Assembly: GCF_003019035.1 (NCBI RefSeq)
Contig: NZ_CP027447.1
Reading direction: 5' to 3' (one strand)
Length of the DNA stretch: 64,000 nucleotides
Source of the DNA: Escherichia coli
GTDB taxonomy: Bacteria; Pseudomonadota; Gammaproteobacteria; Enterobacterales; Enterobacteriaceae
The position numbers were made by a program, and so were the translations under genes. Positions 1 through 38,063 of this stretch are shown here, one piece after another; the first letter of the stretch is position 1, and each line of letters begins with the position of its first letter. Below the pieces are notes generated by a model, which worked only from the letters and a program-made list of their open reading frames with translations, searched no databases and was not told the origin of the DNA.

Positions 1-453
1 GAAATTTTTGCTTATCGAAAACAAAATAAAAAACAGCACGCCTGCTGCAAGTAAGTCTTGCCCGGAGCCGGGTGTTGAGCGGAAATATTCATTGACCAGA
101 AGTGCAAGGCTGGCCAGTTGAAGAATAACCTTGCCAACAAGACCGCGAACGAAAAACTGTTTCACCCTTTCTGTTGACCAGAAACAGGGGTTTTTCAAAA
201 CTTCACGTTGTTCCTCAGCTGGAAAACCATGGATGTAAACGATCCAGTGTGAGTTTTCGGTTAGTGTGAGTGCTGTTCCTGTTTCATTGAGACGGTGTAT
301 GCGCATTGATATAGCAACGGGGAAAACGATGCCGATAAAAACGATGTAAAAAAATGGGGCAGAAATACCAAATGAGGCAAGAACAATGCAAAGCAATGCG
401 ATAAGTAGCATTATGACTTTGGTAAAGAATGGCGAGAATAGCTGATAATTCAT
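1..453 (-). CDS. hypothetical integral membrane protein, N-terminal part only (gene runs off the left edge)
   Basis: Own translation of minus strand from ATG at 453-451: MNYQLFSPFFTKVIMLLIALLCIVLASFGISAPFFYIVFIGIVFPVAISMRIH..., open for about 150 codons to position 1; strongly hydrophobic; absent from ORF track because no stop lies inside the window. Confidence 0.4.
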   Translation of the reverse strand, partial: MNYQLFSPFFTKVIMLLIALLCIVLASFGISAPFFYIVFIGIVFPVAISMRIHRLNETGTALTLTENSHWIVYIHGFPAEEQREVLKNPCFWSTERVKQFFVRGLVGKVILQLASLALLVNEYFRSTPGSGQDLLAAGVLFFILFSISKNF

Positions 454-25347: not shown

Positions 25348-26025
25348 TCAAAGCATAAACCGATACCCAATACCGGTTTCAGTAATGAAATGGCGGGGGC
25401 GAGCGGGATCCTGTTCCAGTTTTTGTCGCAGATGTCCCATATAAATACGCAAATAATGGCTGTGTTCGACCGCGTTTGGCCCCCACACCTGGTTAAGGAG
25501 CTGGCGCTGGGTGAGCACTTTTCCGGCATTGTTGAGCAGCACCGCCAGCAGGCGAAACTCAATCGGGGTGAGATGCACCTCTTCCTCACCGCGATGGATC
25601 ACGCGGGCGGCTAAATCGACGGTCACATCGGAAAATTTCACCAGCGGATCGGGCGCGGTGGTGGCGGAGTGGCGGCGTAAAGCGACGCGCAGACGGGCCT
25701 GCAATTCGCCAATGCCAAACGGCTTACTCAGGTAATCATCCGCTCCGGCATCCAGCGCGGCGATTTTGTCGCTCTCTTCGCTGCGTGCGGAAAGCACAAT
25801 CACCGGCACCGCGCTCCACTGGCGCAGGTCGCGGATAAACTCAATCCCATCACCATCGGGCAGGCCGAGATCGAGAATAATCAAATCTGGCTTACGGGTT
25901 GCCGCTTCCAGCAAGCCGCGTTGCAGCGTTTCGGCCTCAAAGACGCGCATCCCGTCGCCCTCCAGCGCCGTGCGCAGAAAGCGACGAATAGCCTGTTCAT
26001 CTTCAACAATCAGAACGTTTGTCAC
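25348..26025 (-). CDS. kdpE: response regulator KdpE (OmpR family)
   Basis: 225 aa; receiver domain with D52-type site, winged-helix C-terminus. Confidence 0.95.
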   Translation of the reverse strand: MTNVLIVEDEQAIRRFLRTALEGDGMRVFEAETLQRGLLEAATRKPDLIILDLGLPDGDGIEFIRDLRQWSAVPVIVLSARSEESDKIAALDAGADDYLSKPFGIGELQARLRVALRRHSATTAPDPLVKFSDVTVDLAARVIHRGEEEVHLTPIEFRLLAVLLNNAGKVLTQRQLLNQVWGPNAVEHSHYLRIYMGHLRQKLEQDPARPRHFITETGIGYRFML

Positions 26026-28706
26026 ATATCCTCATGAAATTCTTCAAGTTCAGGGGCTATTTGCTGGGGAAGTGTAACACGAAAACAGGCACCACCTTCC
26101 GGTCGGTTGAATGCGGTAATGGTGCCGCCGTGTACATCCACAATCGCCCGACAAATTGCCAGCCCAAGCCCGACGCCCGGCACTGCCGACTCTTTATTCC
26201 CGCGGGCAAACTTATCGAATATCGTCTGCTCCTGGCCTGGCGGAAGACCGGGGCCGTTATCCCAGACATCCAGTTGTAGATTTTCGCCCTCAACGTGGGC
26301 ATCGATACCAATTTCGGCCTGCGCACCCGCGTATTTCACCGCGTTCTCCAGCAGATTAATCAGCACCCGTTCAAAGAGTGGCCCGTCAACGTGGATTAAG
26401 GTCAGCGGCTCTGGCAGAGAAAGATTGATGGGCGACGATAAACCCGGTTCCAGCATTTGCAGCGCGCTGCCGACCACTTCTTCCAGCGTTAACCACTCTT
26501 TCTTCAAATTAAAGCCGCCGGACTGAATTCGCGCCATATCCAGTAGATTATTCACCAGTCGGGTCGTGTTCAGCACATGCTGGCGAATCTCGCTGGCCTG
26601 GCGGGCGTGGGGCGATCCTTCGCTTGCCAGATCGAGCGTTAAGATTTCTGCCTGACCGAACAGCACCGTAAGCGGCGTGCGTAAATCATGCGAAAGTGCC
26701 GCCAGCAGGGCATTGCGGATCTGTTCTCGTTCGCTTGCCATCCGCGCCTGTTCTTCGCTGGCGGTCAGCGTCAGCCGCTCAAGGGCATTGGCGACTAACA
26801 GCGTAAACGTCTCCAGCAGGCGCTGCTGTTCCGGGATCATCAATTGACGCAGATTCCCCGGTTCCACCACCACCAGTCCGTAGGTTTTCTCGCCGCTTTT
26901 TAGCGGCAAAATCTGGTACGGTACACCGGGTAACGTGTCGGTGCCCGCGCCCGCAGGCAGGCCTTTATCAAAACTCCACTGCGCGATGGCATCGTCCCAC
27001 GGCGTCATTCCTTGCGGATGTGTTAACGGCTGCAATTTACCGTTGTCATCGGGTAACAGCACCTGACTGCGGGCATGAAACGTGGAGGCAATAAATTGTT
27101 CGCTGGTGGCGGCGATGTCCTGCGGACTGCGGCCCACAGCCAGAGCTTTCGACATTTCATATAAGTGCCGTGTGCGTTGCTCGCGGTAACGGGCTACCCG
27201 CGCCTGATAACGCACGCCAGCAGTAAGGTTCCCGATCACCAGCCCGACGGTTAACATCACCGCGAAGGTCAGCAGATATTGCACATCAGAGACGGCGAGC
27301 GTGCCGCGTGGGGCGATAAAAAAGAGATCGAAACTCACTACATTAATGACGGTGGCGACCACCGAAGGCCAGCGTCCATAAAATAGCGCCACCACCACCA
27401 CGCCAAGCAGATACAGCATCACCAGGTTGGCGGCATCAAACGCCATCAGCCACTGCATGGCAATTAAGGTGATAACGGCGCATAACGCGGCGGCAACCAC
27501 GCATCCCTGAATCTGTACCCGCCACTTGTCTTTAAAAGAGCGGCTATCCGGCGCGTTGTTAATCGTGCGGGCGGGTGGGTCATCAAGCGCGACCAGCACC
27601 TGATCGAGATCGGGGGCGATACGCGCCAGTCGGTCAGCAAACGTTTCCCGACGCCACCAGCGGCGCGAGGCCGGGCGACCGAGAATAATCTTGCCGAGAT
27701 TATGTTCACGGGCATAACGCACTACCGCTTTCTCTTCCGCTGGATCAGAAAGTGTTGCCGTCTCCGCGCCCAGCTCCTGCGCCAGACGTAAGGCGCTGAG
27801 AATTGCCCGACGTTTTTTCTCCGGTAAGCGATGCAGGGCAGGGGTTTCAACATACACCGCGTGCCAGACACTGCCCAGGCGCGAGGCCAACCGCGCCGCC
27901 GCGCGGACCAGTTTCTCACTGCCGGTGTTATGCCCGATGCATAAAAGGATCGCGTCGCGCGTGTGCCAGACTTTCTCTTCGCCAGGATGCCCCCGCCAGG
28001 CGCGCATTTGCTCATCTACGCGATCGGCAGTACGGCGCAGTGCCAGTTCGCGCAGGGCGATCAGATTGCCTTTGCGAAAAAAATGTTCAATGGCGCGCTC
28101 CGCCTGCCCGGCAATATAGACTTTGCCTTCTTTCAGCCGCTGGCGCAGATCGTCCGGGGGCAAGTCCACCAGTACTACGTCGTCGGCGGCATCAAAAAAA
28201 GGATCGGGCACGGTCTCCCGTACCTGAATTCCGGTGACGCCGCTGACCACATCATTCAGACTTTCCAGATGCTGAACGTTAACGGTAGTGAAAACATCAA
28301 TGCCAGCTTCCAGCAGCTCCTCAATGTCCTGCCAGCGTTTGGGATGACGAGAACCTGGCGCATTACTGTGCGCCAGTTCGTCCATTAAGATCAGTGCCGG
28401 ACGGCGGGCGAGGGCGGCATCGAGATCAAACTCGCTGATGTGCCGCCCACGGTACGCCTGGCGTTTTAACGGCAGAACAGCCAGCCCTTCCAGCATTGCG
28501 GCGGTATCTTTCCGCCCGTGGGTTTCTACCACGCCAACCACAATATCCAGCCCTTGCGCCCGCAGTCGCTGGGCTTCCGCCAGCATCGCCCAGGTCTTCC
28601 CGACGCCTGCGCAGGCACCGAAGAAAACTTTCAGCTTCCCCCGATGCGGCGCGGCAGTTTGTTCCAGCAGACGATCGGGGTCGGGACGTAAGGGTTCGTT
28701 ATTCAT
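26022..28706 (-). CDS. kdpD: sensor histidine kinase KdpD
   Basis: 894 aa from [14 protein letters not shown]; Walker-[10 protein letters not shown], Usp domain, four TM helices, HisKA/HATPase. Confidence 0.95.
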
Positions 28707-29271
28707 CAAGCTTATCCAGCGCCAGATTGAGTTCGACAATGTTGACGACCGGCTGGCCGATATAGTTCACCAGCGGTTGTTGGCTGTATTTTGCGATCAG
28801 TTGCGTGAGCTGTTCAACGCTGAGATTACGCGCTTTCGCCACGCGTGGGATCTGCCAGGCCGCCGCTTGCGGGGTGATGTTATTGTCCAGCCCGCTTGCC
28901 GACGCCGTCACCAGTTCAACCGGAACGCTCGTGCTGGCGTCCGGGTTAGCGGCCCGTAATGCGGCAACGCGTGCGGCTATCTGTTTATCCAGCTCCGGGT
29001 TACTGACTGCCAGATTGCTCCCGCCAGAAGCCTGTGGATTATAGGGCATTTCTGCTGTTGCCGACGGGCGACCATGAAAATAGCCGTTGCCGGTAAAATT
29101 TTGCCCGATTAATGCCGAACCGCGCACCGTATCACCTTCACGAATCAATGAACCGTTGGCCTGCCAGGGAAACCACCATTGCCCCAGTGCGGTGGTCAGC
29201 AGCGGGTAAACGCCGCCAGTAATCAATAACAGAAAGAGAAATGTCGATAATGCCGGACGTAATCCACTCAT
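28699..29271 (-). CDS. kdpC: K+-transporting ATPase subunit C
   Basis: 190 aa from [25 protein letters not shown]. Confidence 0.9.
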
Positions 29272-29279
29272 GGTAAACC

Positions 29280-31328
29280 TCACACCAGACCGCAAACGGT
29301 TAGCAGTAAATCAATGACTTTGATACCAATAAACGGCACCAGCAGCCCACCCAGACCGTAAATCCATAAGTTACGGCGCAACATGGCAGAAGCGGTAAGC
29401 GGTTTATAACTCACGCCTTTTAACGCCAGGGGAATCAAAAAGACGATAATCAAGGCGTTGAAAATCACCGCACTGAGAATGGCGGAGTCGGGCGAATGCA
29501 GGCGCATGATGTTCAGCGCATTTAACTGCGGATACGTTGCCGCGAACGCCGCCGGAATAATGGCGAAGTATTTCGCCACATCGTTGGCAATGCTGAAGGT
29601 GGTCAGCGAGCCACGGGTCATCAGCATCTGTTTGCCAATATGTACCACCTCGATCAACTTGGTCGGGTTGGAGTCGAGATCCACCATATTGCCCGCTTCT
29701 TTCGCCGCCTGAGTACCAGAGTTCATCGCCACCGCGACATCTGCCTGCGCCAGCGCCGGAGCATCGTTGGTGCCGTCGCCGGTCATCGCCACCAAACGGC
29801 CTTCCGCCTGATACTGACGAATCAATGCCAGCTTGGCCTCCGGTGTCGCTTCGGCGAGAAAATCATCGACACCCGCTTCCGCAGCTATCGCGGCGGCAGT
29901 CAGACGGTTATCACCGGTAATCATCACCGTTTTAATGCCCATTTTACGCAGCTGGGCGAAGCGCTCTTTAATACCGCCTTTGACGATATCTTTCAGCGCA
30001 ATAACGCCCAGCACACGAGAACCTTCCACCACCACCAGCGGCGTAGCTCCCTGACGCGCAACCTGATCGACTTTTTGATCAACATCGGCAGGGAAGTGAC
30101 CACCGTTAGCCTCAACATGGCGGCGAATGGCATCGACAGAACCTTTACGGATCATGCGGTTGTCGATGTTGATCCCGCTCATCCGGCTTTGCGCAGTAAA
30201 CGGTACAAAGGTGGCGTGAAGCGACTGCACATCGCGCTCACGCAGGTTAAAACGCTGCTTGGCGAGGATCACAATACTGCGGCCTTCCGGCGTTTCATCA
30301 GCCAGCGAAGCCAGTTGTGCGGCGTCAGCCAGCGTTTTTTCATCCACGCCCTGCGCAGGGATAAACTCCGACGCCTGACGGTTACCAAGTGTGATGGTGC
30401 CGGTTTTATCCAGTAGCAGAACGTCAACGTCACCTGCCGCTTCAACTGCACGTCCGCTGGTGGCAATCACATTCGCGCCCAGCATCCGACTCATCCCGGC
30501 GACGCCAATCGCTGACAACAGGCCGCCAATAGTGGTTGGGATCAGACAGACCAGCAGCGCCACCAGTACCGTTACACTCACTGCATTACCGCCCCACGCG
30601 GAAAACGGCCATAGCGTGGCGGTTGCCAGTAAAAAGACGATAGTCAGGGCAATCAGGAGAATGGTCAGGGCAATCTCGTTCGGCGTTTTGCGTCGCTGTG
30701 CGCCTTCCACCATTGCGATCATCCGATCCAGAAATGTCTCGCCGGGGTTAACGCTGCACTCAATCACCAGCCAGTCAGAAAGAATACGCGTGCCGCCAGT
30801 GACGGAGGCAAAATCGCCGCCGGATTCACGGATCACCGGTGCCGATTCCCCGGTGATGGCGCTTTCATCGACCGATGCGCCCCCTTCAATGACTTCACCA
30901 TCGCAGGGGATAATATCGCCAGCTTCTACCAGCACGATGTCACCTTTACGCAGTTGAACGGCAGGAACTTTGTCCGCCGCAGCGCCATATTTCGGCTCAC
31001 GCAGCTTGCGGGCAAAGGCAGTTTTTTTCACCCCTTTCAGACTGTTGGCCTGCGCTTTACTGCGGCCTTCTGCCAGCGCCTCGGCGAAATTAGCGAACAG
31101 TACGGTGACCCACAGCCAGCCGCTAATTGCCGCGCTAAACAGCGCATTGCCAGGCATCGCCCCGCTTGCCATCGCGATGCTAATACAGGTGGTCAGCAGA
31201 CTGCCGATCCAGACGATAAACATCACCGGATTGCGCCATTGCGCCTGCGGGTTTAATTTTTTCACCGCTTCTTTCAGCGCCTGAACGACAAGTGTTGGTT
31301 CGAATAGCGCCAGTTGTTTACGACTCAT
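29280..31328 (-). CDS. kdpB: K+-transporting P-type ATPase subunit B
   Basis: 682 aa; DKTGT phosphorylation motif and [11 protein letters not shown]. Confidence 0.95.
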
Positions 31329-31350: not shown

Positions 31351-33024
31351 TCAGGAGAGATATTCCGCCACCGGACCAAGCGCCAGGGCAGGGATAAAGG
31401 TCAGTGCGCCAACCAGCAACACGGTGCCGATTAACAGGCCAACAAACAGCGGGCCGTGCGTTGGCAATGTGCCGGAGCTGGCGGGTTGGCTCTTTTTACT
31501 CACCAGCGAACCGGCAATTGCCATCACCGGGATAATCACCCCGAAGCGCCCGACAAACATGCACAACGCCAGTAAACAGTTCCAGAATGGAGAGTTGGCG
31601 CTTAATCCGGCAAAGGCGCTGCCGTTGTTGTTAGCGGCGGATGACACGGCGTACAGCACTTCGCTAAAACCATGCGGGCCAGGGTTGAGCATGGCGCTAC
31701 GTCCGGCGTCGGTCATCATTGCCAGCGCCGCGCCCATCAGCACCAGCGTCGGGGTGACCAGAATCGCCAGTGCAGTCAGTTTCATCTCGCGTACGTCGAT
31801 TTTTTTACCCAGATATTCCGGTGTACGACCAATCATCAGCCCGGCAATAAACACCGCCAGCAGGACAAACAGCATCATGCCGTAAAGGCCGGAACCGACG
31901 CCGCCGAATACCACTTCACCAATTTGCATCAACCACATCGGCACCATGCCACCAAGAGCGGTAAACGAATCATGCATCGCAATCACCGCGCCGCAGGAAG
32001 CCGCCGTAGTCACGACCGCAAACAGGCTACTGACCAGCACGCCGAAACGGCTCTCTTTACCTTCCATATTGATGCTGCTGTCCGCGCCGAGCGCCAGCAG
32101 ATGAGGATTACCCTGAACTTCTGCCCACATCACTACGCCTACGCAGATGACAAAAATCACCGACATCGCCCACAGCAACATGCGCCCCTGGCGACGATCG
32201 CCCGCCACTTCACCAAAGGCAAAGCACAGCGCTGTTGGGATCAAGAAAATCGCCAGCATTTGCACGAAGTTGGTCAGTGCGGTTGGGTTTTCAAACGGAT
32301 GCGACGAGTTGGCATTAAAGAAGCCACCGCCGTTAGTACCGAGCATCTTGATCGCTTCCTGAGAAGCTACTGGCCCCATTGGTAACAGCTGTTGCGCTCC
32401 TTCAATGGTCGTCACAGCCTGATAAGGCTGAAAGTTTTGCAGTGCACCTTGTTGAATAAAAAACAGTGCGATCAACAATGCCACAGGGGCTAACACCCAT
32501 AACGTGATGCGTAGCAGATCGACCCAGGCATTACCGAGCGTGCTCATGCTCTGGCGGGTAAACGCACGGATGAGGGCAAAAATCACCGCAATCCCGCTGG
32601 CGGCAGAAAGAAAGTTTTGCACCGTTAAGCCCGCCATCTGGCTGAAATAGCTCAACGTGGTTTCACCGCTATAAGATTGCCAGTTGGTATTCGTGACAAA
32701 GCTGACGGCGGTATTGAGCGCCAGATCCCACGACAGCCCCGGCAACTGCTGTGGATTAAGCGGCAAATAGTGCTGACCGAGCAACATAAAAAACAGCACC
32801 GCCAGCCCCAGCATATTCAGGCCAAGAATGGCTGAGAGATACTGCTTCCAGTTCATCTCGCGGTCAGAGACGCCAAGCGCGCTAAAGAGTACGCGTTCAA
32901 CGCCCGTCGTACCAGGAAGAGGAATATCATTAATCAGCCGCGCCAGCCCGCTGCCTAAAGGACGTGCCAGCACCATTAACACCAGTAAAAACGTGGCGAT
33001 CAGTAAGAACCCTTGCGCAGCCAT
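31351..33024 (-). CDS. kdpA: K+-transporting ATPase subunit A
   Basis: 557 aa from [16 protein letters not shown]; track ORF begins at an upstream ATG, trimmed. Confidence 0.9.
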
Positions 33025-33101
33025 CAGAACGCCTCCGCATTGATCAGGGCATAAACCAGATAACCCAGTAATAAAAACACCAGCAACACGCCTGCACTCA
33101 C
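33024..33101 (-). CDS. kdpF: kdpF-like small hydrophobic peptide, 25 codons, GTG start
   Basis: Own translation (V/M)[29 protein letters not shown] 6 nt upstream of GTG; stop overlaps the kdpA start. Confidence 0.5.
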
Positions 33102-33173
33102 AGTGCACCTCCAGTGGCCGAAAAGTGATATCGGAAGGGTAGAATTCTGGCTGCAAAGATTTCGCAAAAATCT

Positions 33174-33203
33174 GCGGGCGGGGTGTAAAAAAAGTATAAA
33201 AAT
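33174..33203 (-). promoter_or_regulatory. KdpE operator of the kdpFABC promoter
   Basis: Minus strand reads CATTTTTATACTTTTTTTACACCCCGCCCG, matching the KdpE-protected site as I recall it. Confidence 0.65.
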
Positions 33204-33413
33204 GGCAAAAGCCATGATTTAACTGATGGTTAGTATTAATTTAACTTTTGTGTAACTTAATTACAGTGTGAATGTAAATAAACCATCAATAAGCAAAAAT
33301 AAGTGGTCGGATGAGTAGTAAAATTACACAAAAGGCGGTACTATTTTCATCAGATAAACAAATTCATTTTTCCGGTGCCATTCACCGGGTAGATACAACA
33401 GGGGGAGAAAAGT

Positions 33414-33863: not shown

Positions 33864-36800
33864 ATGAGCGGAAAACCGGCGGCGCGTCAGGGCGACATGA
33901 CGCAGTATGGCGGTAGCATTGTTCAGGGTTCAGCCGGGGTACGTATTGGTGCTCCCACCGGCGTGGCCTGTTCGGTGTGCCCCGGCGGGGTGACGTCCGG
34001 CCATCCGGTCAATCCGCTGCTCGGTGCGAAGGTCCTTCCCGGCGAAACCGACCTTGCCCTGCCCGGCCCGCTGCCGTTCATCCTCTCCCGCACCTACAGC
34101 AGTTACCGGACAAAAACGCCCGCGCCGGTGGGGAGCCTCGGCCCCGGCTGGAAAATGCCCGCGGATATCCGCTTACAGCTGCGCGATAACACACTGATAC
34201 TCAGTGATAACGGCGGCAGGAGCCTGTATTTTGAGCACCTGTTTCCCGGTGAGGACGGTTACAGCCGCAGCGAGTCACTCTGGCTGGTGCGCGGCGGCGT
34301 GGCGAAACTGGATGAAGGTCACCGGCTGGCCGCACTCTGGCAGGCGCTGCCGGAAGAGCTTCGCCTGAGTCCGCATCGTTATCTGGCGACGAACAGTCCG
34401 CAGGGGCCGTGGTGGGTACTCGGCTGGTGTGAGCAGGTGCCGGAGGCGGATGAGGTGCTGCCCGCGCCGCTGCCGCCGTACCGGGTACTGACCGGGCTGG
34501 TGGACCGCTTCGGGCGCACACAGACGTTTCACCGTGAGGCTGGCGGTGAATTCAGCGGCGAAATCACCGGCGTGACGGATGGTGCCGGGCGTCACTTCCG
34601 GCTGGTACTGACCACGCAGGCGCTGCGGGCAGAAGAGGCCCGGCAGCAGGCCATTTCCGGCGGGACGGAACCGTCCGCTTTTCCTGATACCCTGCCGGAC
34701 TACACGGAATATGGCCGGGACAACGGCATCCGCCTGTCCGCCGTGTGGCTGACGCACGACCCGGAATATCCGGACAACCTGCCAGCCGCGCCGCTGGTAC
34801 GCTATGGCTGGACGCCACGCGGCGAACTGGCGGCGGTGTATGACCGCAGCGGCACACAGGTGCGCAGCTTTACTTACGATGATAAATACCGGGGCCGGAT
34901 GGTGGCGCACCGTCACACGGGCCGGCCGGAAATCCGTTACCGTTACGACAGCGACGGGCGGGTGACAGAACAGCTAAACCCGGCAGGCTTAAGCTACACG
35001 TATCAGTATGAGAAAGACCGCATCACCATCACCGACAGCCTGGACCGCCGTGAAGTCCTGCACACGCAGGGCGAAGGCGGGCTGAAGCGGGTGGTGAAAA
35101 AGGAACACGCGGACGGCAGCGTCACGCAGAGTCAGTTTGACGCGGTGGGCAGGCTTAAGGCACAGACGGATGCCGCAGGCCGGACGACTGAGTACAGCCC
35201 GGATGTGGTGACGGGACTCATCACGCGCATCACCACGCCGGATGGCAGGGCATCGGCGTTTTACTATAACCACCACAGCCAGTTAACGTCAGCCACCTGG
35301 CCTGACGGGCTGGAAATACGCCGGGAATATGATGAATCCGGCCGTCTGATTCAGGAAACCGCCCCTGACGGCGATATCACCCGCTACCGTTATGATAATC
35401 CACACAGTGACTTCCCCTGCGCAACGGAGGATGCCACCGGCAGCCGGAAAACCATGACGTGGAGCCGTTACGGTCAGTTGCTGACCTTCACCGACTGTTC
35501 CGGCTACCAGACCCGTTATGACCATGACCGCTTCGGGCAGATGACGGCGGTGCACCGCGAGGAAGGCCTGAGCCAGTGCCGCGCATACGACAGCCGTGGA
35601 CAGTTAATTGCGGTGAAAGACACGCAGGGCCATGAAACGCGGTATGAATACAACGCCGCCGGTGACCTGACCGCCGTCATTGCCCCGGACGGCAGCAGAA
35701 ACGGGGCACAGTACGATGCGTGGGGAAAGGCCGTCCGTACCACGCAGGGCGGGCTGACCCGCAGTATGGAATACGATGCTGCAGGACGGGTCATCCGCCT
35801 GACAAACGAAAACGGCAGCCACACCACCTTCCGTTACGATGTACTCGACCGGCTGATACAGGAAACCGGCTTTGACGGCCGCACACAGCGTTACCACCAC
35901 GACCTGACCGGCAAACTTATCCGCAGCGAGGATGAGGGGCTGGTCACCCACTGGCACTATGACGAAGCAGACCGCCTCACGCAGCGCACCGTGAATGGCG
36001 AAACCGCAGAGCGGTGGCAGTATGACGAACGCGGCTGGCTGACAGGCATCAGCCATCTCAGCGAAGGGCACCGGGTGACGGTGCATTACAGGTATGATGA
36101 GAAAGGCCGCCTGACCGGTGAGCGCCAGACGGTGCATCACCCGCAGACGGAAGCACTGCTCTGGCAGCATGAAACCAGACATGCGTACAATGCGCAGGGG
36201 CTGGCGAACCGCTGTATACCGGACAGCCTGCCCGCCGTGGAATGGCTGACTTATGGCAGTGGTTACCTGGCAGGGATGAAGCTGGGTGACTCGCCCCTGG
36301 TGGAGTACACCCGCGACCGCCTGCACCGGGAAACGCTGCGCAGCTTCGGCCGTTATGAACTCACCACCGCTTATACCCCTGCCGGGCAGTTACAGAGCCA
36401 GCACCTGAACAGCCTGCAGTATGACCGCGATTACACCTGGAACGACAACGGCGAACTCATTCGCATCAGCAGCCCGCGCCAGACCCGGAGTTACAGCTAC
36501 AGCGACTCCGGCAGGCTGACCGGCGTTCACACCACCGCAGCGAACCTGGATATCCGCATCCCGTATGCCACGGACCCGGCAGGTAACCGCCTGCCCGACC
36601 CGGAGCTGCACCCGGACAGCACCCTCAGCATGTGGCCGGATAACCGTATCGCCCGTGACGCGCACTATCTTTACCGGTATGACCGTCACGGCAGGCTGAC
36701 GGAGAAAACCGACCTCATCCCGGAAGGGGTTATCCGCACGGATGATGAGCGGACTCACCGGTACCATTACGACAGCCGGCACCGGCTGGTGCACTACACG

Positions 36801-38063
36801 CGGACACAATATGCAGAGCCGCTGGTCGAAAGTCGCTATCTTTACGACCCGCTGGGCCGCAGGGTGGCAAAACGGGTGTGGCGGCGTGAACGGGACCTGA
36901 CGGGCTGGATGTCGCTGTCACGGAAACCGGAAGTGACCTGGTACGGCTGGGACGGCGACCGGCTGACCACGATACAGAACGACAGAACCCGCATCCAGAC
37001 GATTTATCAGCCGGGGAGCTTCACGCCACTCATCAGGGTCGAAACTGCCACCGGTGAGCTGGCGAAAACGCAGCGCCGCAGCCTGGCGGATGCGCTTCAG
37101 CAGTCCGGCGGCGAAAACGGTGGCAGTGTGGTGTTCCCGCCGGTGCTGGTGCAGATGCTCGACCGGCTGGAAAGTGAAATCCTGGCTGACCGGGTGAGTG
37201 AGGAAAGCCGCCGCTGGCTGGCATCGTGCGGCCTGACGGTGGCGCAGATGCAAAACCAGATGGACCCGGTGTACACACCGGCGCGAAAAATCCACCTGTA
37301 CCACTGCGACCATCGCGGCCTGCCGCTGGCGCTTGTCAGCACGGAAGGGGCAACAGAATGGTGCGCAGAATACGATGAGTGGGGCAACCTGCTGAATGAA
37401 GAGAACCCGCACCAGCTGCAGCAGCTCATCCGCCTGCCGGGTCAGCAGTATGATGAGGAGTCCGGCCTGTATTACAACCGCCACCGCTATTATGACCCGC
37501 TGCAGGGGCGGTATATCACTCAGGATCCTATTGGGCTGAAGGGGGGATGGAATTTTTATCAGTATCCGTTGAATCCGGTTCAGTATATAGATTCAATGGG
37601 ACTGGCATCAAAATATGGACACTTAAATAATGGCGGATATGGAGCGAGACCCAACAAACCGCCTACGCCCGATCCAAGTAAATTGCCAGACATAGCGAAA
37701 CAATTAAGACTGCCATATCCTATTGACCAGGCCAGTAGTGCGCCTAATGTTTTCAAAACATTCTTCAGAGCATTAAGCCCTTACGACTACACACTGTATT
37801 GCAGGAAGTGGGTAAAACCAAATCTGACTTGTACGCCACAGGATGATCCCCAGTATCCAGGGATGGATACAAAGACAGCAAGTGATTACCTGCCACAGAC
37901 AAATTGGCCAACAACTCAATTACCACCAGGATATACTTGTGCAGAACCCTATTTATTCCCAGACATTAATAAACCCGATGGGCCAGCAACAGCAGGGATA
38001 GATGATTTGGGTGAAATTTTAGCTAAAATGAAACAGAGAACATCGAGAGGAATAAGAAAATGA
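33864..38063 (+). CDS. rhsC: Rhs-family polymorphic toxin (N-terminal PAAR-like region, YD-repeat shell, DPIGL core end, ~175-aa variable C-terminal tip)
   Basis: 1399 aa; PAARQGD motif at residues 5-11; GC-rich repeat core; DPIGL at 37523-37537; sharp GC drop after it; located after ybfA as rhsC is in K-12. Confidence 0.9.

Follow-up and report, generated by a model that had tools for sequence, protein, structure and literature searches.

[quoted passage not shown] The topology and lipid contacts of the peptide were taken from PMC13042032, where its N-terminus is periplasmic and lies close to the headgroup of a structural lipid, "lipid B", whose two tails are wrapped around KdpF. In the part of PMC3618439 that cites Gassel et al. 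(1999), Kdp is described as functional in vivo without KdpF, a non-essential subunit. The complex lacking KdpF loses most of its ATPase activity in detergent, regains it with lipid, and carries out coupled transport in proteoliposomes (PMC13042032). Relative to the transcription start, the KdpE element of the kdpFABC promoter spans -72 to -50 (PMC3264566).

The kdp locus described here lies in a 64,000-nt stretch of E. coli contig NZ_CP027447.1, referred to below as the window. The window and K-12 have in common the locus, a GTG start and a GGAGG motif for kdpF, a 1-nt stop/start overlap with kdpA, and a KdpE-dependent promoter, and K-12 residues 1-5 and 10-29 are identical in the KdpF of the window. 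They differ in that the window peptide is without residues 6-9 (ITGV in K-12), giving it 25 residues rather than 29, and that Gly8 and the G4xxxG8 motif are gone. The explanation that best accounts for the locus, and which we consider highly probable, is an ordinary kdpF that has undergone a recent single slippage deletion in a clonal lineage, with a neutral or mild effect. The short allele is ordinary strain variation and its significance is small, as gene, GTG start and role are all textbook knowledge and the allele itself is already known as RefSeq protein WP_096986906.1.

The short kdpF allele and its operon

The 25-codon ORF is an ordinary kdpF, the first gene of kdpFABC, with a normal GTG start behind GGAGG. 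Its reverse complement reads GTG AGT GCA GGC GTG TTG CTG ... TTC TGA, and its TGA stop (33026-33024) shares one base with the kdpA ATG (TGATG, 33026-33022), after which kdpA, B, C, D and E follow, all at full length (Table 1). The KdpE site has the published sequence, with half-sites TTTATA (33200-33195) and TTTACA (33189-33184). A 421-nt query spanning the ORF matched E. coli SCU-301 (NZ_CP051751.1) at 100% identity; in the annotation of that genome the 78 nt are kdpF (WP_096986906.1), with kdpA and kdpB next in line, and the kdpB-kdpE span (25348..31328 of the window, minus strand) carries no pseudogene flags. The short peptide scored above the cut-offs of Pfam PF09604 (28.7 bits vs 21.2) and TIGR02115 (31.9 vs 26.85), and barely above that of NF011332, a 29-position enterobacterial model (57.3 vs 56), on which K-12 KdpF scores 76.7. 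The Pfam scores of the short and full-length alleles were nearly equal (28.7 and 28.9 bits). An initial annotation of the window had described the 25-codon ORF, its GTG start and its GGAGG ribosome binding site as they are found here, leaving the minus strand unstated; the span it gave, 33024-33110, encloses the ORF, but the GGAGG (33112-33108) reaches 2 nt past its end.

Table 1. Features of the kdp locus in the window
Feature	Position	Strand	Basis
kdpF short allele, 25 codons + stop	33024..33101	minus	translation; annotated kdpF in identical SCU-301 sequence
GTG start codon of kdpF, ancestral and normal	33099..33101	minus	K-12 MG1655, 111/113 Enterobacterales species genomes
Shine-Dalgarno GGAGG, 6 nt upstream of GTG	33108..33112	minus	direct reading; invariant in four-sequence alignment
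Deletion junction, sole remaining GGCGTG repeat copy	33087..33092	minus	alignments and locus-by-locus check
kdpA, 557 aa	31351..33024	minus	ATG overlaps kdpF stop by 1 nt; in-frame deletion leaves coupling untouched
kdpB, full length	29280-31328	minus	ORF length
kdpC, full length	28699-29271	minus	ORF length
kdpD, full length	26022-28706	minus	ORF length
kdpE, full length	25348-26025	minus	ORF length
KdpE-binding site of kdpFABC promoter, CATTTTTATACTTTTTTTACACCCCGCCCG	33175..33204	minus	exact match to published 30-bp DNA (PMC3264566)
63-aa extended ORF, ATG at 33215, spurious	33024..33215	minus	gene-caller output in several drafts

The window was aligned with the MG1655 locus (b4513, 728732-728821) and with FDAARGOS_1285, which carries the closest full-length E. 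coli allele. Across the junction the window reads GCAGGCGTG and then TTGCTG, while the same stretch is GCAGGCGTGATAACCGGCGTATTGCTG in K-12 and GCAGGCGTGATAGCCGGCGTGTTGCTG in FDAARGOS_1285. The K-12 peptide of 29 residues had been given correctly in the initial annotation, as it equals both the b4513 translation and the KdpF chains in the PDB, and the 12-nt in-frame deletion proposed there was borne out by the alignment; K-12 kdpF is 12 nt longer than that of the window, so the two sequences are not identical, the outcome that had been named as fatal to the proposal.

Folding of the initiation region was predicted with and without the 12 nt, giving z-scores of +1.6 and -0.5, respectively, neither of which beats shuffled sequences; RNA folding thus provides no evidence that the deletion alters initiation. 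A possible 5-bp hairpin, GCACU-GUG-AGUGC (33093-33105, minus strand), has the GTG start as its 3-nt loop; it is predicted for the short and full-length alleles alike and folds no better than shuffled sequence.

Conservation of kdpF and consequences of the deletion

One genome per species was searched with a degenerate DNA pattern, AAYGCNGARGCNTTYTGATGGC, that spans the kdpF stop and kdpA start. The pattern gave 120 loci, five being chance matches outside kdp and two being cut by the locus end, and the remaining 113 were kdpF genes from Citrobacter, Enterobacter, Salmonella, Klebsiella-group genera, Pantoea, Erwinia, Buttiauxella, Serratia and others, a sample biased by the NAEAF-stop-ATGGC junction that the pattern demanded. 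Every intact kdpF among these 113 Enterobacterales species genomes had its start exactly 29 codons before the stop. This start was GTG in 111 genomes, ATG in one and disrupted in one, and a Shine-Dalgarno-like motif was found upstream of it in all 111 loci scored. Position 8 of the peptide was Gly in 110 of 111, position 4 was Gly in 104 and position 6 was Ile in 99. The KdpF of the window departs from this Enterobacterales-type architecture (29 residues, G4xxxG8) in that it has 25 codons and just one Gly where the motif would be. Because 29 codons and GTG are found across the outgroup Enterobacterales species genomes, both are ancestral and the kdpF of the window is a derived deletion. The opposite direction, with 25 residues ancestral and 29 produced by insertion, was considered and rejected on account of the 29 codons being universal in the outgroups.

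The sole ATG start in this sample belongs to Enterobacter cloacae DSM 26481, and the retention of GTG behind a strong GGAGG almost universally is worthy of note in itself. In Pantoea stewartii subsp. stewartii CCUG 26359 kdpF is apparently disrupted (~1680-1786 of locus L019): the frame ending in ...YLVYALLNAEAF and a stop has no start at codon -29 and has an unrelated peptide upstream. This suggests a frameshift in the N-terminal half of the gene, and either a pseudogene or an error of assembly may account for it.

The residues lost from the window peptide are 6-9, I-A-G-V or equivalently V-I-A-G (I-A/T-G-V across full-length alleles), and the conserved C-terminal 20 residues are unchanged. 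By inspection, the uncharged run before Asn, which is mostly aliphatic, is reduced from 22 residues in K-12 (3-24) to 18 in the window (3-20), still sufficient for a single hydrophobic transmembrane helix. At a rise of 1.5 Å per residue this amounts to approximately 6 Å, making the helix one turn shorter. The span is cut at its periplasmic N-terminal end, where the structural lipid wraps, and the loss of the invariant Gly8 breaks the G4xxxG8 motif, which may be a helix-packing motif, an interpretation of our own. Since the deletion is in frame and TGATG, the full-length kdpA-E and the KdpE site are intact, the pump is presumably expressed normally, with kdpABC expression unaffected. KdpF is an accessory, lipid-like stabiliser that is dispensable for coupled transport in the membrane; given this, and with all other genes of kdpFABCDE intact, we infer that shortening the peptide has no effect or, at most, causes a mild defect. 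The likeliest outcome would be a neutral or mildly weakened KdpF that is tolerated in a gut commensal.

The nearest comparison is with the engineered kdpF-deletion complexes, as far as they are described in PMC13042032 and in the citation of Gassel et al. (1999) in PMC3618439. In those complexes the accessory helix at the KdpA/KdpB interface is perturbed likewise, and a similar phenotype would be expected, namely lipid-dependent stability with transport retained in membranes. The KdpF of the window differs from them in that only one periplasmic helical turn is missing and that the change is a natural one, known here from its sequence.

Removal of the invariant Gly8 of G4xxxG8 and of one helical turn would also fit the main rival explanation, in which the short KdpF is a functional null that neither inserts nor binds KdpA/KdpB, leaving the lineage effectively kdpF-deleted and tolerated only through the in vivo dispensability of KdpF. 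No intact 25-residue KdpF was found among the 113 species genomes, the short allele reaches just 57.3 bits on NF011332 (cut-off 56) where K-12 KdpF reaches 76.7, and the deletion is rare even though its precursor is common, all of which the null reading would accommodate. We nevertheless regard it as unlikely, while according it real weight, given that the 18 consecutive uncharged residues left are enough for a membrane helix, that the conserved C-terminal two-thirds is intact, that the two alleles score nearly alike on the general KdpF models (Pfam, 28.7 vs 28.9 bits), and that none of seven assemblies shows secondary decay of kdpF (a lost start or a frameshift, for instance).

A doubtful but conceivable reading is a naturally weakened or altered-function KdpF, in which loss of the turn bearing G4xxxG8 disturbs the lipid B site between KdpF and KdpB helices M3/M4. 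Were this so, the pump would be more lipid-dependent, or less stable under K+ limitation, and the allele would provide a ready-made in vivo probe of KdpF and lipid B.

It is much less probable that the deletion is adaptive, with a shorter periplasmic end of KdpF altering lipid B binding or pump regulation and being selected in the lineage. The lineage has been sampled repeatedly (43 contigs), and the deleted segment is the part of KdpF around which lipid B wraps (PMC13042032), but the deletion has not recurred in other lineages despite 1,205 precursor genomes, no kdpA changes accompany it, and the examined carriers are clonal, so that hitch-hiking explains its persistence.

The preferred reading of a neutral or mild effect is qualified by the conservation described above. 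The strict conservation of length and of Gly8, with a single occurrence amid 1,205 precursor genomes, suggests purifying selection on such deletions, and for this reason the deletion is not called certainly neutral and is possibly more harmful than "mild". The near-invariance of the 29-codon length, the GTG and Gly8 across the Enterobacterales sampled points to tighter constraint than one would expect on a subunit that is not needed in vivo. The lineage is a natural exception to it, and might be put to use as a mildly perturbed form of the KdpF periplasmic end and of the lipid B site.

Distribution and origin of the deletion

The exact 25-residue KdpF was found on 43 contigs from several independent NCBI accessions in a collection of 15 billion proteins. 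The exact KdpA protein of the window was found in eight places, seven of which have the kdpF deletion: GCA_900603765.1, GCA_043911185.1, GCA_044896315.1, GCA_012934695.1 (SCU-301), GCA_038017995.1, GCA_030294445.1 and GCA_020314715.1 (loci L006-L012). Over the 4,674 nt compared, five of these seven assemblies match the window without a single difference. An alignment of the window with SCU-301 over 24 kb has 30 columns that differ, most of them within the adjacent RHS element, which makes the window a separate assembly. Complete E. coli genomes were searched with 40-nt junction probes that seed only on a contiguous junction; these replaced a 60-nt query centred on the junction, which did not separate deletion from full-length genomes. 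The deletion junction was present in one of 5,426 complete genomes (SCU-301), and the GGCGTA junction expected from a K-12-type background was present in none of the 5,426. The slippage-prone precursor with a perfect repeat was found in 1,205 of them (22%).

The deletion is thus a real and rare allele, clonal as far as sampled. Its occurrence in just one of the 5,426 complete RefSeq genomes is what a sequencing or assembly artefact, or a mutation private to one culture, might produce; such an origin is very improbable, since the identical junction is found in seven different NCBI assemblies, the 25-residue protein occurs on 43 contigs under many accessions, and the window differs from SCU-301 elsewhere.

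The deleted 12 nt are ATAGCCGGCGTG, or equivalently GGCGTGATAGCC, in the full-length precursor. The precursor allele has perfect 6-bp direct repeats, GGCGTG-ATAGCC-GGCGTG, and the 12 nt correspond to one repeat copy plus the 6-nt spacer, so the end-points of the deletion within the repeat cannot be placed uniquely. The direct precursor of the window kdpF is the E. coli/Shigella allele VSAGVIAGVLLVF... (WP_001365534.1), carried by FDAARGOS_1285 and by GCA_025186925.1, in which both GGCGTG copies and the spacer are kept. In the latter assembly kdpF is full-length with the perfect repeat and is identical to that of the window except for the 12 nt, and kdpA is identical to the window's at 1,674 of 1,674 nt. 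As its kdpA is nucleotide-identical while its kdpF is full-length, the deletion is very recent on that haplotype.

Direct repeats around a deleted stretch are the classical signature of slipped-strand mispairing, which is the probable mechanism here. One such event between the GGCGTG copies, 6 nt apart, of the common allele VSAGVIAGVLLVF... would have removed the 12 nt, and the deletion would then have become fixed in one small clonal lineage that includes SCU-301. Support for a single origin comes from the seven sampled assemblies out of the 43 carrier contigs.

Annotation of the locus and its neighbourhood

The short allele is annotated unevenly, being called as 25 residues in SCU-301 and as a 63-aa ORF in five drafts, and going uncalled in one assembly, GCA_900603765.1 (L006). 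This mis-annotation, as a 63-aa ORF or as nothing, is a small caution for the annotation of small proteins. The 63-aa frame is open and was chosen by the gene callers in L007, L008 and L010-L012, yet there is very little chance that it is the true product: its ATG at 33215 is upstream of the KdpE site (-72 to -50), hence upstream of the promoter and off the kdp mRNA, in other species the frame upstream of the GTG lacks conservation and often contains stops, and the GTG at codon -29 with its GGAGG is conserved. The 63-aa ORF is an annotation artefact.

The initial annotation also held that K-12 kdpF begins with ATG and that the start codon of the window strain has changed. This was mistaken with respect to K-12, as MG1655 has GTG at the same position with the same GGAGG, preceded by a leader identical to that of the window, GGAGGTGCACT. 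That the strain exchanged ATG for GTG besides undergoing the deletion has next to no probability, having nothing behind it but that statement on K-12, against the GTG of b4513 and of 111 of the 113 Enterobacterales species genomes, where ATG occurs once (E. cloacae DSM 26481). As K-12 kdpF itself starts with GTG, there is no start-codon change, and the translational fusion that had been proposed for initiation at GTG is needless for this strain in particular.

Over the 24-kb stretch from 20000 to 44000, SCU-301 was 99.9% identical to the window and the next-best complete E. coli genomes were approximately 96-97.5% identical; from these matches the kdp-speF-RHS neighbourhood of the lineage appears to be comparatively divergent or mosaic. 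Within the kdp operon, the window and SCU-301 are distinguished by one G/A substitution alone, at 27886 in kdpD. Most of the 30 differences are in the RHS region, several of them being single-base indels. The large RHS region, downstream to ~41100, includes an ORF for an RHS element core protein of 1,399 aa (33864-38063, plus strand) that adjoins ybfA and is intact in the window; in SCU-301 this gene carries a frameshift in its annotation. In GCA_025186925.1, the haplotype with full-length kdpF, ybgA-phrB lies directly beside ybfA, with no RHS element.
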